Positions 3,652 to 43,574 are shown, counted from the stretch's first letter. The stretch is DNA of 43,675 nucleotides from Actinomycetota bacterium (GCA_038244455.1 JBBRTK010000003.1:1-43675), one strand, 5' to 3'. The notes: a model not told the origin generated them from the letters alone. Translations and numbers: made by a program.

Positions 3652-4520
3652 CAGCGAACGAACCTCCCTTTCAGCCATGCGATCTCGGCACGCGCTTCCA
3701 ACGCCATCCACGCGAACGGGACGGTCACCTTCCGCCACCCCCTCGCTCGGTGCTTACGGTAGTACCGGAGGATAGAGGCCGAATGCATACGGCTCATCCT
3801 GCGCGAGCGGCCCGTCGAGACCCCGATGGCGTGGATGATCTCCACTTTCGGCGTGAAGCGTACCGACCACCCGGCGTTCCGAAGTCGCGTCGCCATGTCG
3901 AGCTCCTCGGCGTAGAGCGGGAACCCTTCGTCGAAGAGCCCGACGGCGTCGAAGGCGGCGCGCGGCATCAGCATGCAGGCCCCGCTCACCCAGTCCACGG
4001 TTCGTTCGGTGGTCCGGTCCCAGCCTTCCATGTGGTAGCGGCGCGTGAACGCGTTCCCCGGCACGAACGGCGAGAGGAATGCGTGTCCCACCGCGTCGAC
4101 CACGCTGGGGAAGGGACGGCCGCTGGGGTACATAGATCCATCCGGGTTACGGATGGCGGGGCCCACGATCCCGGCCTTCGGGTGCTCGCGTGCGGCGGCC
4201 ACGTAGTCCGCCAGCGTGCCGTGAAACCATTCGGCATCGGGGTTGAGCAGGAGGACGTAGGGCGCTTCCGTCGCACCGATGCCCTGGTTCCATGCCGGGG
4301 AAAGGTAGACGTTGCGAGGGTTCTCGATCAGTCGGGCCCACGGGTGTGCGGCCACAGCGCGCCGATGCGAGTTGTCGCGCGAGGCGTTGTCGATGACCAG
4401 CACGTCGGTAGTGATCTGGCCGCGGTGCCTCTCCAGCGACGCGAGACACCGCTCCAGGTAGCCGCGCGTGTTGTAGTTCACGATGACGACGGCGAGCTCG
4501 GCGCCCGCAAGCGACGTCAT
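3651..4520 (-). CDS. Family 2 glycosyltransferase (WbbL-like rhamnosyltransferase)
   Basis: VVIVNYN, VIDNAS, LLLNPD, DWVSGACM and FDEGFPLYAEELD motifs; lies in an rml cluster. Confidence 0.85.
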   Translation of the reverse strand: MTSLAGAELAVVIVNYNTRGYLERCLASLERHRGQITTDVLVIDNASRDNSHRRAVAAHPWARLIENPRNVYLSPAWNQGIGATEAPYVLLLNPDAEWFHGTLADYVAAAREHPKAGIVGPAIRNPDGSMYPSGRPFPSVVDAVGHAFLSPFVPGNAFTRRYHMEGWDRTTERTVDWVSGACMLMPRAAFDAVGLFDEGFPLYAEELDMATRLRNAGWSVRFTPKVEIIHAIGVSTGRSRRMSRMHSASILRYYRKHRARGWRKVTVPFAWMALEARAEIAWLKGRFVR

Positions 4521-4891
4521 GCGGTGCGGGCGACCAGGATGATCCCCGCGATGATGAACGCTACACCCGCCCAGCGGAGCGGCGGAACGGATTCATGCAA
4601 CACGGTGAGGGATGCCAACACGATGATCACGTACCCGAGCGCCGCGAACGGATAGGCGAAGGACAACTCGACCCGGGAGAGGGCGAACAGCCAGACCACC
4701 GCGGACAGGCCGAACAGCACGAGCCCGCCCCACACCACGGGCGAGGCCGCCAGATCCTTCAGTCCCCCGGCTCCGAGGGCGATGTGTCCACCGCCGCCCG
4801 CCTTGGTAGTTACCCGGTCGACGCCGACCTTCAACGTGACCTGTGCCACGCCGGCCAGGAAGACCGACACGAGGATGAGGACGATGTTCAT
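4517..4891 (-). CDS. Small 4-TM EamA/SMR-family transporter (ArnE/ArnF-like)
   Basis: Four hydrophobic helices; WLFALSRVELSFAYPFAALGY motif. A GAAAGG RBS precedes the ATG at 4891 (alternative GTG at 4936). Confidence 0.75.
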   Translation of the reverse strand: MNIVLILVSVFLAGVAQVTLKVGVDRVTTKAGGGGHIALGAGGLKDLAASPVVWGGLVLFGLSAVVWLFALSRVELSFAYPFAALGYVIIVLASLTVLHESVPPLRWAGVAFIIAGIILVARTA

Positions 4892-4932
4892 GGGGTCGCC
4901 TTTCGTATGGGTTGGGGACGGCGCGGGCGCGC

Positions 4933-6108
4933 TCACAGATCTTCCACCGCCGCATCCATCGTGATGAACACCTGGTCGCGGCGCTCGCCCGACTGCTGGA
5001 CCTCGAACGAATACCGTTGGTCCTGCACGTGATAGACGCGGCTCGCATCACGTCCGTGGACGCCCAGCGTCACCCAGTACCGTCCTTGGACGAGCGGCAT
5101 CGCGCGGAGATGGAACGTCACCCTCTTCTTCCCGTCGAAACGCCCGAGTTGGATCTGCTCGGAGACGGTGTCGCCACCGAACACGTAGCGATTCGTGCCG
5201 TCGTGGAGCGCGAATGACACCACCGGGTCATCGATCGGCGTGTTGGCCTTGAGATCGACCTGGATCGTGAGGGATTCTCCGGGGTGGACGGGGCCCTCCG
5301 TGGCGCCCGAGGCGCGGATCAGCTCGGCGCCCATGATCTCGATCTCCTTGGAGCCTTCCTCGGTGGCGTAGTCCAGGTCCTTGTGCAGGATCTTCAGTCT
5401 GAGGGCGCGCACCACCTCGTCGGGTTGGCCCACCTTGTACACCGCGCCGTGGTCGAGCATCACCGCTTGGTCGCAGATCTGGCGAACGGTGTCGAGCGCG
5501 TGGGTGACCAGGACGATCGTTCGCCCGTCACGCTGGAACTGGGCGACGCGGTCCAGGCAGCGGGCCTGGAAGGCCTCGTCACCGACGGCCAAGACCTCGT
5601 CGATGAGCAGGATGTCGGGATCGACGTGAACCGCCACGGCGAACCCCAGCCGCACCAACATCCCGGACGAGTAGAACTTCACCTGCGTGTCCATGAAGTC
5701 GCCGAGCTCGGCGAAGCCCACGATGTCGTCGAACACCTTGTCGGTGTCCTTGCGACCCAGGCCCAGGAACGCGGCGTTGAGGTAGACGTTCTCGCGGCCG
5801 GTGAGTTCGGGGTGGAATCCCGCGCCCAGCTCCAGCAGCGCCGCGATCCGGCCTCGCTGGCGGATGATGCCCTCGGTTGGACGCAGGATCCCCGCGATGC
5901 ATTTCAAGAGCGTGGTCTTGCCCGACCCGTTGTGACCGATCAACGCGACCGACTTGCCCTGCGGCACCTCGAACGTCACGTTCTTCAGCGCCCAGAAGTC
6001 CTCGGCGCGCGTACGGCCCGACAGGAGCCGCGCCTTGAGCGAGCTGGGTTTCTCGCGATACAGGCGGAAGACCTTGGAAACATCGGCGATCTCGATGGCG
6101 GCCGGCAC
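4933..6108 (-). CDS. wzt: Polysaccharide ABC exporter ATP-binding subunit with C-terminal Wzt_C carbohydrate-binding domain
   Basis: Walker A GHNGSGKT, LELGAGFHPELTGREN, YSSGM signature, LLIDEVLAVGD, VTH; ~140-aa beta-rich C-terminal extension. Confidence 0.9.
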   Translation of the reverse strand: MPAAIEIADVSKVFRLYREKPSSLKARLLSGRTRAEDFWALKNVTFEVPQGKSVALIGHNGSGKTTLLKCIAGILRPTEGIIRQRGRIAALLELGAGFHPELTGRENVYLNAAFLGLGRKDTDKVFDDIVGFAELGDFMDTQVKFYSSGMLVRLGFAVAVHVDPDILLIDEVLAVGDEAFQARCLDRVAQFQRDGRTIVLVTHALDTVRQICDQAVMLDHGAVYKVGQPDEVVRALRLKILHKDLDYATEEGSKEIEIMGAELIRASGATEGPVHPGESLTIQVDLKANTPIDDPVVSFALHDGTNRYVFGGDTVSEQIQLGRFDGKKRVTFHLRAMPLVQGRYWVTLGVHGRDASRVYHVQDQRYSFEVQQSGERRDQVFITMDAAVEDL

Positions 6109-7008
6109 CTACAGCTCCTCCGCGAAGTCGCCGGACATCCGGAAGAACGTGCCCCACGTGAACCGGAGCAGGATGAGCGAGGCGGCCAGGACCGCGACAA
6201 GGAGCCCCGCCACCCACATAAGGCTGACGTCCGGCAACACGGTGTGCGCCGGCTTGCCCGCCTCGACCAACACATGCACCCCGTACAACGCTCGCTGGAA
6301 CCCCATCACGATCGGCGTCATCGGGTTGAGGAGGTAGAGCTTCCAGAACAGCGGGTGTCCCTTGACCACGACGAAGTAGTTCTGCACCAGCCAGCCCGAG
6401 TACACGATCGAGGTGAACCAGAACCAGACCAGGAGCCCCAGGTTCACCAGGTGCTGGATGTCCCGGTAGCGAACGTTCAACGCCGACACGAAGAACGTGA
6501 CCGCGGTCGTGAACACGAGCAGCGCGAGGAACGAAAGCGGATAGAGCAACAAGGTGGCGAGCGACACCGGATAGCGGGTGGCCAGCATGAACAACAGGAG
6601 CACCGCCGACTGCAGGACGAAGTCCACCAGGGACACCCCGATCGCCGCCAGCGGCAACAGCTCCCTGGGGAAGTAGACCTTCTTCACCAGGTTCGCGTTG
6701 TCCAGAACGGCCCGGGCACCTTGCGTGAGCGAGACGGAGAACATGTTCCAGGCGAGCAGCCCGGAGAGCAGGAATACGGGGAAATGCTTGATGTTGTTGC
6801 CCGTCACGATCACAACGAAGGTGAACACGATGAGGAACACGACGGGGTTCAGCAGCGACCACACCGCGCCCAGGACCGAGGCCGTGTACTTCACCTTCAG
6901 TTCCTTGCGGACCAGGTTCAGCAGGATCTCGCGGTAGCCGTACAGCTCGCGGACACGCCGGAAGACCTGCAGCTTGGGTGGTTCGGATGTGCGTTCGGTG
7001 ACGTTCAT
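6109..7008 (-). CDS. wzm: Polysaccharide ABC exporter permease
   Basis: ELKVKYTASVLGAVWSLLNP, NLVKKVYFPRE, RYRDIQHL, LNPMTPI; about 6 TM helices; adjacent to wzt. Confidence 0.9.
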   Translation of the reverse strand: MNVTERTSEPPKLQVFRRVRELYGYREILLNLVRKELKVKYTASVLGAVWSLLNPVVFLIVFTFVVIVTGNNIKHFPVFLLSGLLAWNMFSVSLTQGARAVLDNANLVKKVYFPRELLPLAAIGVSLVDFVLQSAVLLLFMLATRYPVSLATLLLYPLSFLALLVFTTAVTFFVSALNVRYRDIQHLVNLGLLVWFWFTSIVYSGWLVQNYFVVVKGHPLFWKLYLLNPMTPIVMGFQRALYGVHVLVEAGKPAHTVLPDVSLMWVAGLLVAVLAASLILLRFTWGTFFRMSGDFAEEL

Positions 7009-7083
7009 CGCGGTGGCGATAGCTGCACTCCTACGGGTCGCGAACACGCAGGCCAGCGCGTTCGCACGAGTCTAGCAACCGGG

Positions 7084-7890
7084 TCAGGCCTGACCTTGAA
7101 GGTTCGATGGCGTTCCTTTGAAGGTCCCCATGGCTCGCAGGTACGAGATGCCGGGGAGTTCGCCCGCCCCGGTGTCCCCCGCGCCCATGTCGGCCAGGGC
7201 GCCCGCCCACATCTCGAGGGCATCGTGAGCGGGGTCCGTCACCATCGCCAGCGTCTCCTGGATGACGCGAGAGAGCGATGGCACCGCGTCCGGGCCGGGC
7301 GCGATCACGCTGGTCGGGGTCAGCGATCCCAGCGCCTGGAGTTGATCAGCCAGGCCCCGGTGGGACACGACCAGGAACTTCGCCCGCCGGGCCAGATGCG
7401 CAACGGTCGCCAGCCCGAAACGCTCCTCCTCTGGAAGGTCCGGACCGAGGCTGTCCTGCGCGTCCCTCGCGATGTGCGCCGCGCGATAGCCGAGCGGGTC
7501 TCCCAGCCCTCGCAGCCGCCAGAGCAATGGGGAGATGTCGGCGACATCCAGCAGGATGACGCTCGACGCGATGAACGCGGCGCGGTAGGCGTTCAGGTAG
7601 AGGCCAGGGTCGGCCCCGATCTCGATCACGGCGACGTGGTAGCCGTGCGACCTGTGGACGTCGCCGGGCTTCACGGGCCAGGACCGGTCGATGCGGACAG
7701 CCGTGGGGAACCCCGCGGCGTGCAGCGCCGCCACCGACAGGCGCGAGGGCGGGACCATGAGGAAGACGTCCCCCAGCGTGCCCGGCACCAAGATCTTAGG
7801 CCCGAAGGATCGGCGGCCGGCGGCCCACGCGATCCGCCCCAGGCGCGTATGCCGCGGGATGAACCGCACGGCGACGTCACGCAGGCTCAT
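7084..7890 (-). CDS. Hypothetical protein resembling a degenerate, internally deleted GT4 glycosyltransferase
   Basis: ATGA overlap with the upstream GT4 stop. Segments loosely echo a GT4 N-terminal domain (AVIEIGADPGLY...VILLD; AKFLVVSHRGLADQL...TSVIAPG), but there is no C-terminal ExG(X)5E motif. Confidence 0.5.
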   Translation of the reverse strand: MSLRDVAVRFIPRHTRLGRIAWAAGRRSFGPKILVPGTLGDVFLMVPPSRLSVAALHAAGFPTAVRIDRSWPVKPGDVHRSHGYHVAVIEIGADPGLYLNAYRAAFIASSVILLDVADISPLLWRLRGLGDPLGYRAAHIARDAQDSLGPDLPEEERFGLATVAHLARRAKFLVVSHRGLADQLQALGSLTPTSVIAPGPDAVPSLSRVIQETLAMVTDPAHDALEMWAGALADMGAGDTGAGELPGISYLRAMGTFKGTPSNLQGQA

Positions 7891-24360: not shown

Positions 24361-24421
24361 GCCGGCATCCTATCGGGGCCATCTACCCCGGAGCCGGAGC
24401 GGCCGCCGGTAGCATCACCTC

Positions 24422-25177
24422 GTGCGCACGCTGCGGATCCCGGCCCTCGTCCTGCTCGTGGCGGCGGCAGCGTGCGGGGGCTCGGCTTCCCCGGTCCTCC
24501 CCTCTCCAACCTCCGATGTCACCCGGACGACCACCCCCACCCCCACCTCCACGCCGGCCCCCACCGCGAGCGCGCCCGCGAGCGTGGTGCCCTCCGGCGT
24601 CCCGTCGGGAACACCCGCCGGCTACGCGAAGGACGTCGGCGCCTCGAACCTGCCACCGTCCGCGCTGGTTCCCGGGGGCGTAGGCGTGACCGATGCGTGG
24701 TCCACGACGACGAGCGCCGGGGAGACCGCCGGCGTGGCCTACGCCCTGGCGGGCGACCCGCTCCAGGTTCCCCACGGCCTGGTCATCTGGCGCCGCTCGC
24801 CCGGCGTGGTTCCGCCGTGGAACCCGGTGTTCGGGCTCACGACGGATGCGGGCAGCGGCGTCTTCCAGATCGAAACCCTGCTGGGAGATGCCACCGGAGA
24901 CGGATCGGACGACGCCCTGGTGTTCGAGGCCACCGGCGGCAGCGGTGCGTGCGGCATCACGCTGCTCCTGGATCTGGCCGCGAACGCCCAGGTCTTCCGG
25001 AAGACTGCGTGCGACACCGTGGTGGGCTTCTCCCCAAGCCCCGTGGGCCTGAGCATCCGGCAGGCGGTCTTCGGGCCGTCGGACTCCCATTGCTGTCCCA
25101 GCGCGTTCCGCACCACCGTGCTCACGTACACGGGGACGACGTGGGTCGTCGCGTCCCGAACGAGCTCGCCCGCCTGA
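24422..25177 (+). CDS. Putative lipoprotein with S/T/P-rich linker and Cys-containing globular domain
   Basis: Signal peptide ending AAAAC; TTTPTPTSTP linker; GDATGDGSDD; SHCCPS; TAGCAT -10 6 nt before the GTG. Confidence 0.7.
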   Translation: MRTLRIPALVLLVAAAACGGSASPVLPSPTSDVTRTTTPTPTSTPAPTASAPASVVPSGVPSGTPAGYAKDVGASNLPPSALVPGGVGVTDAWSTTTSAGETAGVAYALAGDPLQVPHGLVIWRRSPGVVPPWNPVFGLTTDAGSGVFQIETLLGDATGDGSDDALVFEATGGSGACGITLLLDLAANAQVFRKTACDTVVGFSPSPVGLSIRQAVFGPSDSHCCPSAFRTTVLTYTGTTWVVASRTSSPA

Positions 25178-25186
25178 GGGGGCGTG

Positions 25187-27469
25187 CTAGATCAGCGTCG
25201 CGATGCTCCGGCGCCGGCTGACCTTCGAGATCTGCACCGCCACCGGGAACTGGTCCTTCACCTGTTCGGCGTGAGTGACCACGAAGAGCTGATGGAAGCG
25301 CGCGGAGAGTCGCCCCATCGCCAGGACCATCAGGTCCTTGCGCTCTTGGTCCAGCGATCCCAGCACCTCGTCCAGCACCAGCATGCCGACATCGGCGCCG
25401 GACACGCGAGACAGGTGCATCGAGATGGCTACGCGGAGCGCCAGGTTCGCCAGATCGGTTTCCGAACCGCTGAAGCGATCGATGTCGTAGTAGGTGTCGC
25501 CGTCGGCGATATGGATGCTCAATGTCTCGTCGTCGATCTTCAGGTCGTCGTACTCGTGGTTCGTGAGCTCGCGGAAGAGCGACTCGGCCTCACGGGAGAG
25601 CTCCGGCCCGACCCGGCCCACCAGGTGATCGCGGAATCCGTCAAGGAGCGTGGCGACGCGGTCACGGTAACGAGCCTCGGAGCGGAGTTCGTCGGCCCGT
25701 GTCGCGGTCTTCTGAGCCTCCTCCAGCGCGCCGTGAAGTCTGGCCAGGTCGGCCTCGGTCCGGGCCCGCAGATCGGTGGCGGCTCGCTCGGCCTCGCGCG
25801 CGGCCGCGAGTGCCGAATCCGCGTTCGCGCGCGCATCGCGCAGGGCGGCGTACACGACGGGGTCGTGGGCGAGGGCAGCAAGCGCCGCCGCTGCGGCGGA
25901 CGTTTCGGCAGCGATCTCTGACGTTCGTTCCTCCGCGGTGGTCAGGTCGGCGGTCAGCTGGTCACGATGCTCGGCCTGTTGGGCCAGGCGCGCCGACTCG
26001 GCGCCGAGCGTTCGTTCGCGTTCGACGCGTTCGGTGAGTTCGGCCGGATCGGGCACTGCGCCGTCGAAGGGTGCGGCGAGCGCGGTCAGCGCGGCGCTGA
26101 GGTCGTCCAGGCGCGTCTGGGCGGCGGCCCGGTCGCGCGCGGCCCGCTCAGCCGTCTGCCCCGCCGTCGCCGCCGTCTTCAGCGCCGCTTCGGCCTTGCC
26201 CAGCGCAGCGCTCGCCGCCTTCTCCGCCCGGGCGGCGGCTGCGGCCTTCGCAGTGGCTTCGGCGGCCTCCTGTTTGCGATGGGCGAGGTATCCGGTGAAG
26301 TCCTTGCCCAGCTCCCGTCCGCACGTGGGGCACGGCTCGGTGGGGTCGGCCTCCTTCGCGCGGGCGAGCCGGTCGGCGGCGCTCGCGGCCAGCTCCGCTA
26401 GCTGTTCGGCGGTGGCGGCGGCGCGGGCGGCTTGCGCGCGGGCATCGTCGGCCGCCGCGGTTGCCACTTCGAGCGCCGCGAGGGACTCCTGGGGATCCGA
26501 GACGGGGAGATCGGCCAGCTGACGCTCGACCACCGCGAGCTCCTCCGCCTTCGTGCGGTAGTTGCGCGCGGCCTGCAACAGCTCCCCGGCGCCGGCGAGC
26601 GAAGCCAGCTCGGCCTGGAGGGCCGGAAGGTGGGCCACCGCATCCGTGGTGACCTCGAGGCGGAGGATGACCTCGGCCTGGTGCGCCTGGAGACGGGTCA
26701 GCTCCCTGCCCAGCCCGTCCAGGCGCACGGTCAAGGTTTCCGCCTGCTGGCGCGCCGCGTCGGCGGCTTCGAACGCTGCCGCGGCGGCCGCGCGGGCCTC
26801 GGTCGCGATCTTGAGCCCGGCGGCCGCGGCCGTGGCGTTCCCAGCGGCCTCGGCGGCAAGGTCCTTCGCCTCCTTGATGTCTGCCTTGAGCTGACTCATG
26901 TCGGCGGCCACCCCCGCCAGCTGGTCGGCCTGCCTGCGCGCCTCGATCCCGTCCTTGCGGGCAACCTTGCGCGCGTCGTCCACCGGCCGGATCCCCAGGA
27001 GCCGAAGGACCATCTCCTTGCGCTTGCCCGCCGTCACGTCGGAGAACGCGTCCAGCTGCTTTTGTTCGGCGAACACGCTTGCGCGGAAGACCTGTCGATC
27101 CATCCGGAGCAGCCGCGCGATCTCGGCGTCCACGTCGCTCACGCCCGACGCCAACTGCAACGAACCCACGAGCAGCTCGGCGTCGGTGGCATGGTTCTTC
27201 CCTTTGATCGAACGCCGGACCTCGTAGGTACTGCCGCCGTGTTCGAAGATCATCCGGAGTTCGCAATCCGCAAGGAGCCCGTTCGTTCGGATCTGGTCCT
27301 TCTTCGTGCGGGCCGCGTCGATGCCGTAGAGCGAGACGGCGATGGCCTCCATCAGCGTCGACTTCCCCGAACCGTTCGGCCCCACGACGCCGATAACCCT
27401 GGCCGGCAGCTCCAGGTCCAGCTCCTCGAACTGCCGGTAGTTCCGCAGGCTGAGCTCGACGACCCTCAC
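25187..27469 (-). CDS. rad50: Rad50/SbcC-family SMC-like ATPase (760 aa)
   Basis: LRNYRQF, Walker A GPNGSGKS, Q-loop FAEQK, CPTCG zinc hook at residue ~380 (the midpoint), signature FSGSE, Walker B/D-loop LVLDEVLGSLD, VVTH; GTGA overlap with mre11. Confidence 0.9.
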   Translation of the reverse strand: MRVVELSLRNYRQFEELDLELPARVIGVVGPNGSGKSTLMEAIAVSLYGIDAARTKKDQIRTNGLLADCELRMIFEHGGSTYEVRRSIKGKNHATDAELLVGSLQLASGVSDVDAEIARLLRMDRQVFRASVFAEQKQLDAFSDVTAGKRKEMVLRLLGIRPVDDARKVARKDGIEARRQADQLAGVAADMSQLKADIKEAKDLAAEAAGNATAAAAGLKIATEARAAAAAAFEAADAARQQAETLTVRLDGLGRELTRLQAHQAEVILRLEVTTDAVAHLPALQAELASLAGAGELLQAARNYRTKAEELAVVERQLADLPVSDPQESLAALEVATAAADDARAQAARAAATAEQLAELAASAADRLARAKEADPTEPCPTCGRELGKDFTGYLAHRKQEAAEATAKAAAAARAEKAASAALGKAEAALKTAATAGQTAERAARDRAAAQTRLDDLSAALTALAAPFDGAVPDPAELTERVERERTLGAESARLAQQAEHRDQLTADLTTAEERTSEIAAETSAAAAALAALAHDPVVYAALRDARANADSALAAAREAERAATDLRARTEADLARLHGALEEAQKTATRADELRSEARYRDRVATLLDGFRDHLVGRVGPELSREAESLFRELTNHEYDDLKIDDETLSIHIADGDTYYDIDRFSGSETDLANLALRVAISMHLSRVSGADVGMLVLDEVLGSLDQERKDLMVLAMGRLSARFHQLFVVTHAEQVKDQFPVAVQISKVSRRRSIATLI

Positions 27470-28605
27470 ACGGTCTCCCCCTGCGCGGACTCCAGGTAGC
27501 GTGCGCCGAGATCGACAACACGATCGCGTTCCAGCCCCGAGAGGTCCTGGGTGGCAACGAACGTCGACCATTCGCTCGACAGCGAACCGATCTGGGGCGC
27601 CCCCTGGACGGCGTAGGACTCGGCACCGACGTCTGGCTCGATCTGGACGTGGAGCGCGCCGGGGACCGCCTCCTGGAACTCTTCGTTCCGCACCTGCCGG
27701 AAGGCTGCGGAGTCCACGTGCTCCAGGAAGACCCGGACCACCGAACCCTCGGGCGACCCCTTCGCGGCTCGTTCGACCGCATCGACCAGCTCACCGGGAC
27801 CTAGGCCCGAGGACTCCACGCTGAGCGTCACCAGCGGGCGCTCGCCGGGGTTCTCGATCTGCTCCACCGTGCCGGCGTCCGTGTCGATGATGACGAGCCC
27901 CTTGGGGCCCGCATCCGCCGGCTTGTCGGCGAACGAGAACGAGTCCGTGGAACCGGCGTACCAGGTTCGCTTCGATGCCTTCTGGAACACGTGGTAGTGC
28001 CCCAGCACCACCAGATCGAACCGCTTGTCGAACGCCCCCTCCTCGATCTCCAGCTCGTTGATGTCGCGCCCGTAGGCACTGACCGGCAGTGATGTGAGCG
28101 CCACGTGAGCGATGAGGAGATCGGTCGCATCCCCGCCCGCCGCCCCGGCCGCCACCTCCAGCTCGGCCCGGAACTCGTCCACGCCCAGGGTTTGCGGAAC
28201 GGCGTGCACCTTCACCCCCGCCAGCTCGGCGCTCCGCGCCTGCATCGACCACGCGAACTCCACGTTGGAGAAGACCTCCTCGAGCGCGGCGTAGGGCGAA
28301 CCCGTCCCCCGCACGCGCGGGGTGTCGTGGTTCCCGCTGATGCTCACGCCGCGCAGGCCCGCCGCGTTCAGGTTCTTCAGCCCCACGAGCACCTTCCCGA
28401 ACGTGCGATAGGTCGGCCGCGCGTGATCGAAGATGTCCCCGAGCCAGATGAACCCGTCGGGCTCCTGCGCGATGGTCTCCTGCACCGCCCAGGCGAAGGA
28501 CCGCAGGAAGTCCTCCTCGCGCGTGTTCCGGCCCTGTTCGTCCCGCAGGTGTGCCAGGTGCGTCCGCCCCAGGTGGGCGTCGCCGAGGGCGACCAGGCGC
28601 GCCAC
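27466..28605 (-). CDS. mre11: Mre11/SbcD-family metallophosphoesterase nuclease
   Basis: Motifs GDAHLG, GDIFD, SGNHD, LIAH, LGHYH, WYAGS; directly upstream of the Rad50-like gene. Confidence 0.9.
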   Translation of the reverse strand: MARLVALGDAHLGRTHLAHLRDEQGRNTREEDFLRSFAWAVQETIAQEPDGFIWLGDIFDHARPTYRTFGKVLVGLKNLNAAGLRGVSISGNHDTPRVRGTGSPYAALEEVFSNVEFAWSMQARSAELAGVKVHAVPQTLGVDEFRAELEVAAGAAGGDATDLLIAHVALTSLPVSAYGRDINELEIEEGAFDKRFDLVVLGHYHVFQKASKRTWYAGSTDSFSFADKPADAGPKGLVIIDTDAGTVEQIENPGERPLVTLSVESSGLGPGELVDAVERAAKGSPEGSVVRVFLEHVDSAAFRQVRNEEFQEAVPGALHVQIEPDVGAESYAVQGAPQIGSLSSEWSTFVATQDLSGLERDRVVDLGARYLESAQGETV

Positions 28606-30173
28606 TACTCGGCGAACCCCTTCGATCGTCCTTCGGGGACGGGCGGCAGCGGCGAGGGCCCCTTCACCGTCTTCAGGTGATCCTCGTAGAGATAGACCTG
28701 CGCCGGCAGCGCGAACGGCGCCTCCAGGTTCGTGATGATGGCCTCCCCGGGCATCAGCGTCTGGATCTCGGGCCCCAGGTCGGAGATGTCCTGCTTGGAG
28801 GATCCCCGCAGGATGTTGCGGTCCTTCTCATCGGCCAGCCCCAGGATGAAGAACGTGTTGAACTGGCTCAGGAGTTCGTCGTCGATGAGCTTGGGCTGCT
28901 GGCTGACCGCGCAGAGCCCGACCTTGAACTTCCGGCCCTCGCGGGCGACGCGGGGGAACACGTTCTCGTCCCCGCGTTGCACCCTGGACAGCACGCGCTG
29001 GGCCTCCTCGAGCGCGATCAGCGTTGGCGGCAGCGCTGCGAACGCCGCGCGGTCCTCCAGGAAGATCTGCCCGTAGGTGTCCAAGACCCGCCGGGTGATC
29101 ACCGAAGCCACGAGGATCTCCTCCATCGAGGAGAGCCCGCTGGTGTCCACCAGCACGGAGAGCCCGTTCATGAGTTCGTCGACGATGCGCGCGGACAGCG
29201 AGGGCTGGGACGGATCGCGGCTGATGCACGGCATGTCCAATATCCGCTGCGCGCGGCGTTGGATGACCTGCAACGTGCTGGAGGCAACGCCCAGCTCCTC
29301 GGCGAACTTCGGCACGTCGTCCTCCTCGCCCACGCGCGAGATCCATTCGTCGCCGTAGAAGCGGATGAGGCGATAGATCGCGTCCTCCTGCGCGTGGCTC
29401 CACTGATACGCGGTCTGCAGGTCCCCCAGCGTGAGCTCACCCAGGGAAAGCCGGAGCCCGGTGGCACCGGCGCCCGCCGCGCGCGTCGCGTAGACCTTCA
29501 GCCGGTCGGCCGCCCACGGATGGTCGCGCAGCCCCTTGCGAAGTCCGCTCCCCCCTTCCAGGTACTCCCCGTGCGGATCGAACAACAGACAGGCGTACCG
29601 GCCCGAGGAGGCCAGGACCTGCCCGGCGAGCACCTTCATGAGGTTGGACTTGCCCATGCCGGTGGTGGCGAAGACACCGACGTGACTGACCAGGGTCTCT
29701 CCCTTGATCCCCACCTCCAGATCGATCACGTCCTCACCGGAGCGGAGCTTGCCGATCCGGATATCCCCCATCTGTTCGGCCAGGAACGCGAAATCCTCCG
29801 GGCCGGGCGCCGTCACGCGCGCGAACTGCGCCGGAAGCGATTTCGGCTTACGGAACGCACCCGAGGTCCCGTCGATGTAGCCGAGCGGCTGACACTTCGC
29901 GACCTTGTACAGGCGCTGCTCAGGATCGTACAGCTCATACGGCGACTCGGCCCGGTCACCCGCCATGTAGGCGCCGGCGGTTCGTTCGGCCCAGGCGGGA
30001 TCGCTCGAATCCGACCCGTACGTCACGTCGATCGCCCGGAACAGGAAGCGGCGACCCCGCTCGGCGTCCTCCGCCACCAGCAGCTCGCCCAGGAACAGAT
30101 CCGTGCCGTAGTAGGCGCGGAACTGTGCTTCCAGCACGCTCTTGCCGAAGATCCGGCCTTTGTCCACGCTCAT
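28605..30173 (-). CDS. herA: HerA-family ATPase/helicase (HAS barrel + DUF87)
   Basis: N-terminal beta-barrel-like segment; HVGVFATTGMGKS Walker A, FDPHGEY, Walker B IALEEAQ, AREGRKFKVGLCAVSQQP, SQFNT. Confidence 0.88.
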   Translation of the reverse strand: MSVDKGRIFGKSVLEAQFRAYYGTDLFLGELLVAEDAERGRRFLFRAIDVTYGSDSSDPAWAERTAGAYMAGDRAESPYELYDPEQRLYKVAKCQPLGYIDGTSGAFRKPKSLPAQFARVTAPGPEDFAFLAEQMGDIRIGKLRSGEDVIDLEVGIKGETLVSHVGVFATTGMGKSNLMKVLAGQVLASSGRYACLLFDPHGEYLEGGSGLRKGLRDHPWAADRLKVYATRAAGAGATGLRLSLGELTLGDLQTAYQWSHAQEDAIYRLIRFYGDEWISRVGEEDDVPKFAEELGVASSTLQVIQRRAQRILDMPCISRDPSQPSLSARIVDELMNGLSVLVDTSGLSSMEEILVASVITRRVLDTYGQIFLEDRAAFAALPPTLIALEEAQRVLSRVQRGDENVFPRVAREGRKFKVGLCAVSQQPKLIDDELLSQFNTFFILGLADEKDRNILRGSSKQDISDLGPEIQTLMPGEAIITNLEAPFALPAQVYLYEDHLKTVKGPSPLPPVPEGRSKGFAE

Positions 30174-30175
30174 GG

Positions 30176-31252
30176 TCAGCTCCGATTCAAGATCTCGTGG
30201 AAGTCCTGGAACAGGACCTCGATGTCATCCTCGTGCATGCCTTCGCGCGTGAGCGCTTCGCGGAACGCGCGGCGCACATCCGCCACCGCGTAGCCGGTGA
30301 CGCGCGCAGCCTGATGGGCCCGCGCCAGCGGGTACGGATACCCGACGAACGCAGGATCCCCGGCGAGCCCCGCCAACCGGGAAAGGACCTCGCCGGGCTC
30401 CCCCGGCCCGCGCGCGATGTCCACACGGAACGCGTGCGCGGCGGTGGGCGCCAGGTGCGCGATGAAGATCTCCCCGACGTAGAGCCGGCCGAACACGGGA
30501 TCGGTGGAGATCCGGGCGGCCCAGCGGGAAGGCCCGACCTCGCGGTCGGCGCGGCGTTTGAGCAACGTGACCAACGGCGCGTTGCGTCCCCAGAACAGGG
30601 TGGAGGCCTTCACCACGCCAGCCAGGTGGACGCCGCGGGCCACCGCCGTCTCATGTGCCCGCCGCACCACCTCCGGGGGCACCAAGGGCCCCCCGTGCAA
30701 CGAGCCGTCGACCAGGACCAGGTCGCCGGACGCAGCCTCGTCGATGGTTCGGATGGTGGCCTTCCATTCCGCCCATCCCCGCAGCGCGTCGACCGGACGG
30801 GTTAGTTCCGGTAGCTGTCCGGGTTCTTCGCCGGTGAGTTCGCGCAGCGCCTCGCGCGCCAGGTCCGCAACCTCGTGCCGGGACACCGCCCGGATCTCGA
30901 GGGCGGGCGATTCGACCAGGTCGGTGGCGCCGCCCGCGAATCGCACCCTGGCCACCCGGAAAGCCGCCACCTGGAAGGAGCGAGCGTCGGCCACCAGGCA
31001 CGAACCGCCGTCCACCGCCCACACGACGCCGGGGTCTTCGACGGGCACCGGCTCGATACCGAACGCGTCCGGGTGGCCCGGGACCACCACGTCTTCTCCC
31101 AGTTCGAGCTGCCCGTCCACGATCCGGATGTCGCCTCCGGGGTCGCGCAACAGGTCCACCACGAAGGCTGCAGCCTGATTCAGCTGATCCCCGCGAACCC
31201 GGTCGGCGCCGACCAGACGGTCGGCCTCCACGGGGTCCAGCGCGCTCGACAT
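30176..31252 (-). CDS. nurA: NurA-family 5'-3' nuclease
   Basis: VWAVDGGS, LVLVDGSL, GVVKAST and GYPYPLARAH motifs; immediately upstream of herA. Confidence 0.85.
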   Translation of the reverse strand: MSSALDPVEADRLVGADRVRGDQLNQAAAFVVDLLRDPGGDIRIVDGQLELGEDVVVPGHPDAFGIEPVPVEDPGVVWAVDGGSCLVADARSFQVAAFRVARVRFAGGATDLVESPALEIRAVSRHEVADLAREALRELTGEEPGQLPELTRPVDALRGWAEWKATIRTIDEAASGDLVLVDGSLHGGPLVPPEVVRRAHETAVARGVHLAGVVKASTLFWGRNAPLVTLLKRRADREVGPSRWAARISTDPVFGRLYVGEIFIAHLAPTAAHAFRVDIARGPGEPGEVLSRLAGLAGDPAFVGYPYPLARAHQAARVTGYAVADVRRAFREALTREGMHEDDIEVLFQDFHEILNRS

Positions 31253-31258
31253 GGGCGA

Positions 31259-31280
31259 AGGATACCCACCCTCGCCGACG
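31259..31280 (-). promoter_or_regulatory. PafBC/RecA-NDp-type promoter for a leaderless nurA operon
   Basis: Minus strand reads CGTCGG-cgagggtggg(N10)-TATCCT-6 nt-ATG, versus consensus TGTCGG-N10-TANNNT (one mismatch). Confidence 0.6.
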
Positions 31281-31308
31281 TGATCCCAAGGCCATGAGCC
31301 GTTCGGAC

Positions 31309-31344
31309 CAGTCCCTCTTGACTAGAAGCAGTCCCCAGGGACTG
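31309..31344. repeat. CAGTCCC direct repeat plus inverted repeat CAGTCCC-CA-GGGACTG
   Basis: CAGTCCC at 31309-31315 and 31329-31335; its reverse complement GGGACTG at 31338-31344. Confidence 0.55.
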
Positions 31345-31370
31345 AAGGTTCGGCGGGTAGATGCCGATAG
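31343..31370 (+). promoter_or_regulatory. sigma28 (FliA/WhiG)-like promoter
   Basis: TGAA-N16-GCCGATAG versus consensus TAAA-N15/16-GCCGATAA, 47 nt before the RBS-preceded ATG at 31418. Confidence 0.5.
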
Positions 31371-31417
31371 GCAGGGGATAGAACGGGATCAGCGGTCAAG
31401 GACAAGAGGGGGATCTC

Positions 31418-34400
31418 ATGAGCCGGCCGAGGAACGCTTCACGCATCGCGCGCGTACCGTTGTTCGCGCTGGTCGTGCTGCTCGCCGGCGGCTCGATCGG
31501 TTCGATCGTGATGGCCGGCCGCGCTCGCGCCCACGCACAAGAGGCGATGGTCACCCAGGCCCGATCCGCCGTTGAGAACACGCTGTCCAGCATCTTCAGC
31601 GACAACGACCTGAGGACCATGTCCTCGCCCACGCGCGCCGCCACGCTGAACACCGAACTCTCCGTGGCGCTGGGCGCAACAGCCGTCTCCGACGTGACCC
31701 TCTACAGCTCGATGGGCGCGATCTTGTACGACATCCAGAACTCACGCATCGGCAACAAGCTCCTGGGCGAGCGGCTCGCGATCAAAACCGCCACCCACGG
31801 CGGCGCGGTCCCGACAATCGTCGGCACCGACCTCACCGTGATGCTCCCGATCCAGCGGTTCGGCACCCTGGGCGCGGTCATGCTGACGATGCCGCAGGCG
31901 CCGATCGATGCTGCGGGCCGCCCATGGACGGCGGCCGGGCTGATCATGGCGCTCTGCATCCTGCCGGCGCTGTTCATGCTGTGGTGGGTCGGACGCATCG
32001 CGGCCGCCTCGGGCGCGAACATCAGCTTCCGCCTCCAGCAGATGACCTCGGCTCCCTCGCGCCGGGAACAGACGCGTCCGTCCCCTGCCCCGGCGATGCA
32101 GCATGGGTTGAAGGAGGAAGGCGACGCGCGGAGGATGTCAGAGGAACGCGCCCGGGCCGCAGAGGAGCGCTTGAGCGTGCTCCAGGAGCAGTACCGCAAG
32201 ACCCTTGCCGACCTGCATGCCTCGAAGGAAACGCCACCACCGGCAACGGGGAGCAAGGCGCTCGAGGAACGCGCGCTCCAGGCCGAGGGGAAGCTCCGCC
32301 TCTTGGAGGGGCAGCTTCGCGCGGTCAGCGACGAACGCGACAAGATGGAGGAAGAGCTCCGCCTCACTCCCGCCGCCGCACCCGGAGAACCCGACCCGCG
32401 ACTGAAGACGGAGTACGAACGGATGGAAACCGAACTGGTCGGCGTTCGAGCGGAGCTGGAGGGAACGCAGACCGAACTCTCAGCCGCCAACCGAGAGCTC
32501 ACCGACCTGCTCTCCACGGTGGGCCGCGCTGAAGGGGACAAGGCCGACCGGATCCGCGACCTCGAGCAGGACCTGGATGCGGCACATGTGCAGATCCTGA
32601 CCACCCAGGAAGCGCTCGAGGCGGCGCGCGCCGAAGCCGACCAGGTCCAAGGACGAGCGGGGTCGGCGCAGACCGAGCTGGGATCGTTGCGTGAGGCCCA
32701 CGACCAGGCTGTCCGAGACAGGGACGCCGCCATCCTCTCCTCCCGCGAAGAGTCAGAGAGCCTGCACCGCGAACTGGATGCGCTGAGCGCGAGCGCCGGG
32801 GGAGAAACCGAAGCGGTTCGCGCACAAGCCGCGGAGGCCCGAGCGGCGCTCACGGCCCAAACCGAACGCATCCGGGAACTGCAGCAGCAGCTGGATGCCG
32901 CGCGGTCGGAGATCCTTCGCGCCGAGGAGACGGGCAACGCCGCCGGCGCGCACGCGGAAACCACCCGCACCGAGCTCGAGGCAACCCGCAAAGAGCTGCG
33001 CGCCCTGCGGAACGAAGAGCAGCGCGCGGCGATGCTGGAGGACGAGCTGCGCGCCACCCGCGCCGAGCTCGAGAACACCCAGGCTTCTCAATTGGCCGAA
33101 CTCGCGGAGCGAGACGCGGATCTCGAGGGCCGGGTTCGCCGGACCCGAGAGGAGTTCCAGGCCGTGATCGGTGAGAGGGACGTGCAGTTCGCCGCCAGCC
33201 AGAACGAACTCGGGTCGGCCCGGTCCGAACTGGGCCAGATCCGTATGGAGGCCTCCGCTGCGGCGAACGAGGCCCAAGCCCAGACCGCGCGCGCCGATGA
33301 TCTGGCCGGGCAAGCCGAGCGAGCCGAACGCGAGCTCCACGCGCAGCAGACCGTAGTCCGCAAGACCGCCGCCGACCTCCAGGAGGCCGTGGAAGCCAAC
33401 GCGGACCTGGCGCGCAAGCTCCAGGATCTGGAGAACCGCCGTCAGCTCGAGCTCGCCGACGAAGAGGGTCATCTGAAGATGGACCAGATCCTCTACGCCA
33501 CGCAGGAGCGCCTGGCCGGACAGACCGAACGGCTCATCGAGACGGAGGAACGCGCCCACGAAGCGGAGCGCTCGGTGGAGATCCTGAACGAGCGTCTGGA
33601 CGAGACGCTGTCGCAGCTGCGCGCCCTGCAGATGGCCGATGCGCTCCGCGACCTGCGGGGCGAGGAGCACGCCCAGCACGAGGCAGCCGCGGAGGCAGGC
33701 GCCATTGAGGATGAGGTGGTCCGACTCGAAGACCGCCGAGCGTCCTCGCCCTTCCTGAAGGAACTCACGCTGGATGCAAGGAAGTCGCTCACGCAGATCC
33801 TGGGGATCACGCAGATCCTGAAGTTCAAGAAGGATGCGAAGGACCAGGCGCAGCTGGTGAAGCAGCTCACGGCCTATGCGCGGCGCCTGGACCTGACCGT
33901 GAGCGATCTGGCCGACGCCGACAAGCTTGCACGCGGTTCGGTCGAACTCACGGTTCGCCGGACAGACCTGGAAGCCTTGGTCCAGCGCGTCGTCGAGGAA
34001 TCCGACGTGAGCGCGGACCACGACGTCCGCGTGGTCACGGAATCGGTGGTGTGCGGGGTGGATCAGCTGCGCACGGAGCAGGCGCTCGCCGGGCTCCTGC
34101 GTTCGAGCGCGGATCGCACACCCCAGGGAAAGTCCATCCTGGTCACGCTTCAGCAGGTCGAAGGTGGCGCGCTGATCTCCGTCGGCGACCCGGAGCCGTC
34201 CTCGGACGGCTCGCTGTCGCCGGTGGTCAGGCGATTCGCAGAGATCCAGGGCGGATGGGCCAAGGTGGATACGCGCGAGGACGGAACCGGTTCGATGTTC
34301 CGGATCTTCCTCCCCGACGGTGGGAGCAACAGCGCCGGGGCCGACCTTCGGATCGTCGTCAACGACGCCGGCCAAGGCGACTCGGAGGATGCCCCCTGGA

Positions 34401-34459
34401 ACGATGACGATCAGGACATGTTGGTCCGGGAGATCGGCCGTCTGGCGGAGCCGAGCTAG
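31418..34459 (+). CDS. Membrane-anchored long coiled-coil protein with degenerate histidine kinase (HisKA/HATPase) C-terminus
   Basis: Two TM helices flank a ~140-aa extracytoplasmic domain; ~550 aa of E/A/R/L/Q-rich heptads; C-terminal FLKELTLDARKSLTQILG...TDLEALVQRVVEE...EQALAGLLRSSADRTP...ISVGD...QGGWAKV...GSMFRIFLP. Confidence 0.8.
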   Translation: MSRPRNASRIARVPLFALVVLLAGGSIGSIVMAGRARAHAQEAMVTQARSAVENTLSSIFSDNDLRTMSSPTRAATLNTELSVALGATAVSDVTLYSSMGAILYDIQNSRIGNKLLGERLAIKTATHGGAVPTIVGTDLTVMLPIQRFGTLGAVMLTMPQAPIDAAGRPWTAAGLIMALCILPALFMLWWVGRIAAASGANISFRLQQMTSAPSRREQTRPSPAPAMQHGLKEEGDARRMSEERARAAEERLSVLQEQYRKTLADLHASKETPPPATGSKALEERALQAEGKLRLLEGQLRAVSDERDKMEEELRLTPAAAPGEPDPRLKTEYERMETELVGVRAELEGTQTELSAANRELTDLLSTVGRAEGDKADRIRDLEQDLDAAHVQILTTQEALEAARAEADQVQGRAGSAQTELGSLREAHDQAVRDRDAAILSSREESESLHRELDALSASAGGETEAVRAQAAEARAALTAQTERIRELQQQLDAARSEILRAEETGNAAGAHAETTRTELEATRKELRALRNEEQRAAMLEDELRATRAELENTQASQLAELAERDADLEGRVRRTREEFQAVIGERDVQFAASQNELGSARSELGQIRMEASAAANEAQAQTARADDLAGQAERAERELHAQQTVVRKTAADLQEAVEANADLARKLQDLENRRQLELADEEGHLKMDQILYATQERLAGQTERLIETEERAHEAERSVEILNERLDETLSQLRALQMADALRDLRGEEHAQHEAAAEAGAIEDEVVRLEDRRASSPFLKELTLDARKSLTQILGITQILKFKKDAKDQAQLVKQLTAYARRLDLTVSDLADADKLARGSVELTVRRTDLEALVQRVVEESDVSADHDVRVVTESVVCGVDQLRTEQALAGLLRSSADRTPQGKSILVTLQQVEGGALISVGDPEPSSDGSLSPVVRRFAEIQGGWAKVDTREDGTGSMFRIFLPDGGSNSAGADLRIVVNDAGQGDSEDAPWNDDDQDMLVREIGRLAEPS

Positions 34460-42626: not shown

Positions 42627-43574
42627 CTATCCGGCAGGAAGTTCAGCCGAGGGGCAGATGGTGGCTCGCGGGCACCAGCCGCAATACCGGCCAGGCGTGA
42701 GTTCGGGTTCGCGGCCGGCAAAGAGAGCGGCGGCGGCCCGAACGGCGGCCGTCACCCGGTCCGCAGCGCGGAACAGAGTCTCTTCGGTGACGTCCTCGGA
42801 CTGCCATTCGCCGCTCTCCAGGAAGAGCGAACCCACCCGGAACGGGGGCACACCGAACCGGAGCGTCAGGAGCAGCGCGTAGAACCGGTTGTCCTCCACA
42901 TGCTCCGGGTAGGCACCGCCCGTCTTGAGGTCGAGCGCGAGCCGGGTGGCCCGCATGGGATCGGTCCGGTCCTGGATCCCGAGCACCAGGTCCATCCGTC
43001 CGGACAAGACCAGTTCGCCGCCGGAGAGTTCCGCGCGCGATGACAGCTCGGCGACCGGCGCCAGCTCGCGACGCAGTTCTCGCAGCGGTGGGAACGTCCC
43101 CTGGAACTGGGTGACGCGCCGGACGGCCTCCGCGACGACCTCGTCCTGACCCGGCGGCGTCAGCGCGCCCCAATACTCGGCGAATCGTTCCTCTTTGGTG
43201 ACCAATCGCTCGACCGCGAGGTCCACGGTCTGCGCGGGACCGAGGGGTTCACGGGCGCCGACCTCGACCTCGATGGCCTTGTGTTGGAGCACTCCGGCCG
43301 CGGTGGACACGGAGTGCTCGAACGGTTCGGACTCGCCCAGGAGCCGCGCGGTGAACATGCCCTGGCACTGGGTGAGCGCCGAGAGTTTCGCCTTGCTAAG
43401 CCAGAGCTGCTCAACCAGTTCGACCCCTCGGACGGCCTCCTCGATCCGGTCACGGAGGCGTTGGGGCAGATCCGCCGGGAACAGAGGCCGCTGCTGCCCC
43501 GCTCCCAGGAGGTGCTCCATGGTCCGGCGCTGGGGGTCCGTGAGCGGCATGGGCGGGGGCTGTGTGATCTCCAT
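42627..43574 (-). CDS. PD-(D/E)XK superfamily nuclease with probable 4Fe-4S staple (RecB/AddB/Cas4-like)
   Basis: LSGRMDLV (motif II), LDLKTG (motif III), DNRFYAL (QxxxY-like); one N-terminal Cys (TQCQG) plus C-terminal CGWCPRATIC. Confidence 0.82.
   Translation of the reverse strand: MEITQPPPMPLTDPQRRTMEHLLGAGQQRPLFPADLPQRLRDRIEEAVRGVELVEQLWLSKAKLSALTQCQGMFTARLLGESEPFEHSVSTAAGVLQHKAIEVEVGAREPLGPAQTVDLAVERLVTKEERFAEYWGALTPPGQDEVVAEAVRRVTQFQGTFPPLRELRRELAPVAELSSRAELSGGELVLSGRMDLVLGIQDRTDPMRATRLALDLKTGGAYPEHVEDNRFYALLLTLRFGVPPFRVGSLFLESGEWQSEDVTEETLFRAADRVTAAVRAAAALFAGREPELTPGRYCGWCPRATICPSAELPAG

Follow-up and report, generated by a model that had tools for sequence, protein, structure and literature searches.

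The stretch of DNA analysed here, which we call the window, comprises 43,675 nt of an Actinomycetota bacterium (GCA_038244455.1 JBBRTK010000003.1:1-43675) and carries, at positions 25187-31252, a cluster of four minus-strand genes for a NurA-type nuclease, a HerA-type translocase and an Mre11-Rad50 pair. The source genome (G000) is a 2.7-Mb metagenome-assembled genome (MAG) in 350 contigs, 92% complete, of which the window is contig 3; its nearest public relatives are uncultured Actinomycetota MAGs. The first gene of the cluster, nurA (30176..31252), belongs to what we will call type A and codes for a predicted NurA-family nuclease of 358 residues. It is followed by herA (28605..30173), for a 522-residue protein of the HerA/FtsK superfamily of hexameric ATPase-translocases, by mre11/sbcD (27466..28605), for a phosphoesterase nuclease of the Mre11 family (379 residues), and by rad50/sbcC (25187..27469), for an ABC ATPase of the Rad50 family with a central zinc hook (760 residues from GTG 27469).

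A preliminary description of the sequence had the four genes joined by a 2-nt gap or by overlapping stop and start codons, and the junctions read exactly so. Two nucleotides separate nurA from herA (TGA, CC, ATG), the TAG of herA and the GTG of mre11 overlap by 1 nt (TAGTG), and the TGA of mre11 overlaps GTG 27469 of rad50 by 4 nt (GTGA). All three junctions are bridged by contigs of a second study's metagenome run (X2). The ORF finder opens rad50 at ATG 27571 (25187-27571); as the Pfam and NCBIfam matches begin only at residue 36-39 of that frame, GTG 27469 is most likely the true start. Third-position GC lies between 0.86 and 0.90 in nurA, herA, mre11 and rad50, as in the neighbouring aconitase gene, and the GC-rich composition thus resembles that of the flanks, as had been noted. 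The putative operon is delimited upstream by a divergent gene that starts at 31418 (+) and downstream by a convergent gene at 24422-25177 (+). Its promoter region is presumed, by position only, to be the 165 bp between nurA and the divergent gene (31253..31417). Only one terminator-like site was found, inside herA, which is fewer than in shuffled sequence.

All four proteins match the families expected of them in Pfam (NurA PF09376, DUF87 for HerA, Metallophos for Mre11, AAA_23 and SMC_N for Rad50), and the core motifs named in the preliminary description are intact in each. As for NurA, the match to PF09376 (E 5.7e-7) amounts to 29.7 bits, the cut-off being 21, with no single stretch passing alone. 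NurA relatives of the same type score 20.2-50.1 bits on this model, that of locus L049 falling just below the cut-off at 20.2. A six-frame search of the source genome with PF09376 gave no match at E<=0.001, which we treat as a limit of sensitivity and not as counter-evidence to NurA, and the single sequence found only a chance match in the PDB (E 0.3). A profile of 15 NurA relatives matches NURA 2ygk (E 1.6e-8), with the DGG, DGSL and YPxPL..H segments aligned. An AlphaFold model built on the relatives' alignment (pLDDT 81.1, pTM 0.82) has as its top Foldseek match in the PDB the NurA of S. solfataricus (2ygk_A, E 4.6e-10, with moderate TM scores of 0.50/0.55) and as its second-best match TdpB of the TdpAB complex. 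Further fold matches include the NurA proteins of T. kodakarensis (9x1m/9x1n) and D. radiodurans (7f6d_G), TM1739 (1zup) and the P. furiosus-type NurA entries 3tai/3tal/3taz. The motifs are AVDGG (79-83), VDGS (181-184) and YPYPL (305-309) followed by AH; across 15 sequences D81, E162, D182 and GYPYPL (304-309) are invariant, and H313 is nearly so. Presumably, D81, E162, D182 and H313 form the D-E-D-H set predicted to carry out catalysis. Given the profile match, the fold matches and the conserved D81/E162/D182 and GYPYPL..H block, the first ORF encodes a NurA protein, its model showing the RNase H-like NurA fold; Pfam, profile and modelled fold agree on this assignment, which the preliminary description had also made.

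HerA proteins belong to the FtsK-HerA superfamily. That of the window matches the HerA central domain (DUF87, PF01935) over profile positions 1-220 of 220, with 86.6 bits against a cut-off of 23.2, and carries GMGKS (172-176) as Walker A, LIALEE (385-390) as Walker B and, for the arginine finger, REGRK (411-415). Its best PDB match is HERA 4d2i (83.3 bits), and D. radiodurans HerA (7f6d_B) is not among its PDB matches at E<=0.001. On the NCBIfam model HerA_Thermprot it scores 93.9 bits (cut-off 800), so that the archaeal HerA equivalogs NF040937 and NF040819 are not reached (93.9 against 800 and 88 against 970 bits).

The Mre11 protein matches Metallophos with 42.4 bits (cut-off 21.5) and contains the motifs DAH (9-11), GDIF (56-59), GNHD (91-94) and GHYH (202-205). 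In 13 sequences the residues of the five phosphoesterase motifs, D9/H11, G56-D57, G91-N92-H93, H167 and G202-H203-x-H205, are invariant. Among NCBIfam models it scores 53.1 bits on Mre11_Sulfo (cut-off 500), 48.4 on Mre11_Halo (550) and 46.8 on sbcd, TIGR00619 (77.65), and in the PDB SbcD 7dog and Mre11 3auz both match at about 35 bits. The Rad50 protein scores 64.3 bits on AAA_23 and 54.7 bits on SMC_N, the latter spanning residues 38-785 of the longer ORF. It has a split ABC head, with Walker A (GPNGSGKS, 30-37), signature motif (SGSE, 667-670) and Walker B (MLVLDE, 696-701), and a CPTC hook at residues 380-383 of 760, exactly in the middle; its Ala/Glu/Arg-rich middle part would form the coiled coil. 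It scores 131.8 bits on the archaeal model PRK03918 (cut-off 700) and 78.8 bits on sbcc, TIGR00618 (478.5). The Rad50 chains of the PDB match at 63.8-76.7 bits, and SbcC 6s6v at 31.2 bits, in the C-terminal lobe only.

The preliminary description took the cluster for an archaeal-type resection machine. What stands of this is that type A leans towards the archaeal kind by the best scores of NurA, HerA and Rad50; Mre11 does not discriminate between the archaeal and the bacterial kind, and all four proteins stay below the equivalog cut-offs. The archaeal gene order is herA-mre11-rad50-nurA. The order nurA-herA-mre11-rad50 of the window is the bacterial one, its start with nurA agreeing with bacterial nurA-herA pairs (PMC5448004).

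The cluster occupies a chromosomal slot whose flanks are common across the order, with ftsH, a thiolase gene, an acyl-CoA dehydrogenase gene (acad) and the gene of a 1013-residue coiled-coil protein (orf1013) on one side, and thioesterase and aconitase genes on the other. The neighbours are thus housekeeping genes, and no mobility gene was found among them in the window, as the preliminary description had remarked. In five members of this family without type A (G013, G014, G215, G240 and G009), the same slot holds four genes of another type: two without any match in Pfam or NCBIfam, then sbcD (161 bits on TIGR00619, above the cut-off) and sbcC. The profile of the unnamed HerA of these relatives matches D. 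radiodurans HerA (7f6d_B) over its full length with 561.8 bits, and that of their unnamed NurA matches D. radiodurans NurA (7f6d_H) with 135.9 bits, and TM1739 too. Because of these matches we regard the slot of the relatives as holding a Deinococcus-type nurA-herA-sbcD-sbcC cassette, type C. Its NurA has about 310 residues and its HerA about 580 (L072:14140-17294 in G013, L073-L076 and L077-L106). The actinobacterial type C NurA and HerA have no Pfam or NCBIfam match whatever, and standard annotation likely leaves them as hypothetical proteins upstream of sbcDC.

Although they share a slot, types A and C have no detectable pairwise likeness. BLASTP between their HerA proteins was not significant, and hhalign between their NurA proteins gave a probability of 33%, over the C-terminal motif only. 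Between two type A genomes of different genera (G410 and G018), the cassette has 74.6% DNA identity over 6078 bp and the flanks 74-78%; between two type C genomes the values are 72.7% for the cassette and 72-81% for the flanks. Within a single genus, a type A genome aligns with a type C genome at 68-80% in the flanks, whereas the cassettes are unalignable except for one piece of 236 bp. As cassette divergence equals flank divergence, both cassettes must be old residents of the slot, which agrees with the earlier view that the cluster is not a recent arrival. Two histories would fit these values: a polymorphism of ancient date, or recombination in the conserved flanks that replaced one cassette by the other.

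How widespread the layout is was determined in 401 genomes of Actinomycetota species, sampled evenly. The window HerA finds matches in 73 of them, 37 of which are type A, defined as a HerA at least 49% identical to that of the window; these are nine genomes of the window's order (the source genome included), one whole family (21/21) and seven others. The NurA profile detects 64 genomes, namely the 37 of type A and 27 with a second kind, type B, which is present in three families (10/10, 10/10 and 7/21 genomes). By combined coordinates, nurA, herA and mre11 are colinear with gaps below 3 kb in 53 of the 64 NurA-bearing genomes; in nine others a contig end breaks up the set, and in the remaining two herA and mre11 lie 8.9 and 11.4 kb apart. 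Within the window's order, all four genes are present in the same arrangement at 21 of 34 related type A loci. The incomplete ones stop after mre11 (three), herA (eight) or nurA (two), 12 of these 13 at contig ends; the exception, L042, has no mre11 in the 1.1 kb left downstream of herA. At four type A loci (L018, L025, L039 and L042), herA is separated from mre11 by 0.7-1.2 kb or by an additional ORF, where the window genes overlap. We fetched 20 regions across the phylum, 13 of type A, five of type B and two others. The four genes are found in 12 of the 13 type A regions, the thirteenth being cut by a contig end. In one of the two other regions herA is separate from mre11-rad50, and in the other it stands alone.

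In type B, four of the five loci have nurA, a small HAS-barrel ORF, herA, mre11 and rad50, and the fifth, L057, shows no rad50 match before the contig end. The extra ORF of about 200 residues between nurA and herA (L056:5338-5934, L059:7564-8142, L060:9738-10400 and L061:7407-8072) matches the HAS-barrel model in two of the four cases (30.6 and 20.6 bits). In this type, the barrel that would dock NurA appears to be encoded apart from the ATPase. Five type B NurA matches (in G258:C95, G114:C24, G167:C36, G220:C16 and G185:C24) are each interrupted by a single in-frame stop codon (TAG, TAA or TGA), which could reflect a pseudogene, a sequencing error or a split gene; their families otherwise all keep the cluster.

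The type C HerA profile matches in 115 of the 401 genomes, strongly in 88 and weakly in 27. Of the best 30 type C loci, 27 have nurA, herA and sbcD in colinear order, and in most of them the beginning of sbcC can be seen as well; the exceptions are a cut contig, a nurA outside the fetched flank and an sbcD 2.8 kb away. Comparison of the lists shows no genome with both a NurA-profile match (types A and B) and a type C HerA match. The 27 weak matches all belong to one family, f19, in which 30 of 31 genomes possess an Mre11-like gene of a distinct kind, scoring about 245-265 bits on the Mre11 profile. In 27 of the 31, by coordinates, a HerA-like ORF of about 680-700 residues is present, mostly 0.3-3 kb upstream of the Mre11-like gene on the same strand (for example G173:C40:38595-40793 and G065:C39:53706-55827), and the NurA profile found no NurA in this family. 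The f19 genes may represent a fourth cassette type. Taken together, herA of one of the four types is found in about 179 of the 401 sampled genomes. Some of the genomes counted are unpublished: two of the 64 with NurA (G029 and G117), eleven of the 115 matched by the type C HerA profile, and those behind three of the best 30 type C loci (L093, L095 and L106). Leaving them out gives 62 of 399 genomes for NurA, 52 of 62 for colinearity, 104 for type C HerA and 24 of 27 for the type C loci.

The four-gene layout is therefore the rule in Actinomycetota, in at least three sequence types. The preliminary description had regarded bacterial nurA-herA pairs as usually separate from sbcCD and the co-location of the four genes as an archaeal hallmark. 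The first view is contradicted by the 53 of 64 colinear NurA-bearing genomes and by 27 of the best 30 type C loci; as for the second, the layout is common across Actinomycetota and is already in print for Oceanithermus profundus (PMC5448004).

What might the cluster do? It encodes what is probably the sole Mre11-Rad50 complex (SbcCD class) of the organism, along with a nuclease-translocase of the NurA-HerA kind. As in the archaeal and Deinococcus homologues, Mre11-Rad50 would recognise DNA ends and open or clean them, the HerA hexamer would thread the duplex into the NurA dimer, and NurA would degrade DNA in the 5'-3' direction, preparing ends for RecA-dependent recombination. In published accounts, Mre11-Rad50 prepares the ends and a HerA hexamer feeds the duplex into a dimer of NurA (PMC3326311, PMC9960219, PMC8708640). 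Gene identities, NurA fold, motifs, layout, distribution and slot are established by the present analysis, whereas complex formation, the enzymatic activities and the role in repair are predicted for the window proteins from their homologues. Type A is one of at least three non-interchangeable sequence types of the cassette; in this order it is chromosomal and old, and kept vertically at a fixed slot. We consider it probable that this picture holds as a whole, that is, that the four genes form one operon with a role in repair and that this operon is a type A cassette long resident in its slot.

Several observations weigh against it. No match to the Pfam HAS-barrel (PF09378) was obtained in the window HerA at E<=0.01; this N-terminal domain mediates NurA binding in the HerA proteins studied. 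All four window proteins score far below every NCBIfam equivalog cut-off, archaeal and bacterial, and their functional equivalence is for that reason an assumption. No sigma-70-like promoter was found upstream of nurA, and a LexA-box pattern, allowing up to 3 mismatches, gave 56 matches, none within 31253-31417. Since the assembly is a MAG of 350 contigs, genes that seem to be missing from it may simply be unassembled. Finally, the HerA-NurA of T. kodakarensis was reported to cut both strands, in a 2026 study that doubts a role in resection (PMC12977600).

With regard to other break-repair genes of the source genome, the sbcc and sbcd models find only the window locus and no second SbcCD, although the same search returned one open frame of 1195 residues on contig C37, possibly an SMC protein. 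The cluster is thus the only Mre11-Rad50 set found in this genome at 92% completeness. The preliminary description contrasted it with actinobacteria that use AdnAB or RecBCD, a contrast that does not hold for AdnAB. By domain architecture, two adjacent ORFs on G000:C125 (L071:1006-3930 and 3927-7130, +), of 974 and at least 1068 residues, the second cut by the contig end, appear to be an AdnAB-like pair, each having UvrD-helicase, UvrD_C and PDDEXK_1 domains. RecC had no match in the source genome, and RecB only sub-threshold UvrD-like matches. As the genome has the AdnAB-like pair, the cluster does not stand in for AdnAB; NurA-HerA/Mre11-Rad50 would instead run alongside the AdnAB-like helicase-nuclease encoded elsewhere.

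Might the cluster serve mainly in anti-phage defence, HerA-NurA shredding linear double-stranded DNA of foreign origin in the manner of Sir2-HerA, DUF4297-HerA or TdpAB? The second-best fold match of the NurA model, TdpB, points that way, as do matches of HerA to the PADLOC HerA models (up to 79.8 bits) and of Rad50 to the mad3 and LmuB models (about 72 bits). An antiviral role has been suggested for archaeal HerA-NurA (PMC12977600), and the destruction of foreign DNA is discussed in PMC3326311. The PADLOC matches are nevertheless generic, at the level of superfamilies, and weaker than those of Rad50 and HerA to repair models, and NurA and Mre11 have none. Moreover, the cluster is carried by whole families (21/21, 10/10 and 10/10), unlike patchy, island-borne defence genes, and its slot is conserved across the order. 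We favour repair over defence because the cluster lies among housekeeping genes as a single copy, encodes the only Mre11-Rad50 complex found in the genome and alternates with an sbcCD-bearing cassette in relatives; defence as the main function is improbable. More improbable still is a function of HerA-NurA in chromosome segregation or DNA pumping, like FtsK, with an incidental link to Mre11-Rad50. The superfamily that HerA shares with FtsK would accommodate it, DNA pumping into daughter cells has been proposed from comparative genomics (cited in PMC4663267 and PMC2588523), and D. radiodurans mutants are described as having a proliferation defect (PMC5448004). Against this, herA is tightly linked to mre11 throughout the phylum, down to overlapping stop and start codons in the window, and this linkage argues for a function shared with Mre11-Rad50.

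The origin of type A is a separate question. Its proteins score best on archaeal models and structures, and the sister cassettes in the same slot are Deinococcus-like (561.8 bits for HerA, 135.9 for NurA, and an SbcD above the sbcd cut-off at 161 bits) and show no detectable pairwise likeness to it. These data could be explained if type A had been acquired en bloc from archaea, replacing in situ an ancestral bacterial nurA-herA-sbcDC cassette. Leads from the ESM Atlas, rows of a sort that are in themselves no sign of transfer, go in the same direction: the clusters closest to NurA are mixed Archaea/Actinomycetota, Bathyarchaeota and Nitrososphaerota, and for Mre11 the third-closest one is Methanobacteriota. 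Among the 68 full-length HerA representatives nearest to type A, taken from 150 listed, however, none reaches an archaeal HerA cut-off (the best has 127.6 bits against 970). The nurA-first order is bacterial, Mre11 scores about equally on SbcD and Mre11 models, and the composition of the cassette matches that of its host. The SbcD proteins of the other types pass the bacterial cut-off of TIGR00619 (77.65), with 122.4 bits in type B and 161.2 bits in type C, and the sbcc model scores above the archaeal Rad50 models for the Rad50-SbcC proteins of both. As type A is found in at least 11 families of the phylum sample and has diverged as much as its flanks, any transfer, in whichever direction, must have been ancient. 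On balance, we find acquisition from archaea somewhat unlikely.

A broader proposition concerns the cassettes as units: each genome would have a single cassette of one of the types A, B, C and the fourth, which exclude one another and show no detectable likeness, and whole cassettes would have displaced one another at a fixed slot, even within a genus. We put this forward tentatively, with somewhat more doubt than conviction. If it were true, the four proteins would evolve and be exchanged as one co-adapted module, throughout a major bacterial phylum HerA-NurA would be obligately tied to Mre11-Rad50, and type A would possibly be archaeal in origin.

The closest known systems compare with the cluster as follows. 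The archaeal mre11-rad50-herA-nurA operon, described for Sulfolobus and Pyrococcus (PMC3326311, PMC2288612), joins the same four families in one co-oriented cluster. Like it, the window has a short zinc-hook Rad50 (760 residues), and its HerA, NurA and Rad50 score best on archaeal structures or models; unlike it, the window cluster has a bacterial host, begins with nurA, has no detected HAS-barrel and scores far below the archaeal equivalog cut-offs. The NurA-HerA pair of D. radiodurans (PDB 7f6d; PMC9960219) and type C also have nurA followed by herA, and in the relatives type C occupies the same slot and continues, likewise, with sbcD-sbcC. Type C HerA matches 7f6d_B at 561.8 bits, whereas the window HerA does not match it at E<=0.001, and on the sbcd model type C SbcD lies above the cut-off (161 against 77.65 bits) whereas the window Mre11 stays below it (46.8). 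For D. radiodurans, PMC4663267 leaves open whether nurA-herA is linked to sbcCD. Oceanithermus profundus has nurA-hepA(herA)-sbcD-sbcC, with SbcD and SbcC encoded downstream of nurA-herA as in the window, a layout that its authors read as an archaeal-like architecture for double-strand-break repair (PMC5448004). It belongs to another phylum, Deinococcus-Thermus, and the comparison made here is one of gene layout. The SbcCD of E. coli (PDB 6s6v) is the same pair of nuclease and ABC ATPase with a zinc hook, although its similarity to the window Rad50 is weak (31.2 bits). The E. coli SbcC is also much longer, with 1048 residues, and is not known to have a herA or nurA partner. AdnAB does the same job in actinobacteria, resecting the ends of double-strand breaks, with proteins unrelated to the window set, namely two subunits that each combine a UvrD-like motor and a PD-(D/E)XK nuclease.

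According to a review, NurA and HerA have homologues in Actinobacteria as well as in other phyla, but only those of D. radiodurans were studied (PMC8708640). Our literature search, in the main texts of papers, found no published work on actinobacterial nurA-herA-mre11-rad50 clusters. By itself, the window cluster is an ordinary repair operon for its phylum, and the side result is more interesting: alternative cassettes at one slot, and a layout that pervades the phylum. Actinobacterial SbcCD/Mre11-Rad50 genes are usually accompanied by herA and, where checked, by nurA. Actinobacterial NurA and HerA of the Deinococcus type escape the Pfam and NCBIfam models altogether and are under-reported in annotations as a result. 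Two unrelated cassettes that alternate at one slot also amount to a natural swap experiment on whether HerA-NurA goes with its own Mre11-Rad50, and they bear on the open dispute as to whether HerA-NurA performs end resection.

Some neighbouring ORFs deserve a word. The convergent gene at 24422-25177 (+), downstream of rad50, has a lipoprotein-like N-terminus and a third-position GC of 0.89. A minus-strand ORF of 235 codons overlaps it (24383-25090); it is probably spurious, because its GC content peaks at codon position 1 and its product is Arg/Gly-rich. Neither ORF has a family match in Pfam or NCBIfam. The gene divergent from nurA (31418-34459, +) encodes the 1013-residue protein mentioned above, which has a membrane segment at its N-terminus, a very long coiled coil rich in Ala, Glu and Arg, and a C-terminus resembling that of histidine kinases (40.6 bits on the CreC model against a cut-off of 356, with no Pfam match). 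It adjoins the slot in relatives of either cassette type. Near the end of the window, a stand-alone protein of 315 residues belongs to the PD-(D/E)XK nuclease family (42627-43574, -; PDDEXK_1, 48.7 bits).

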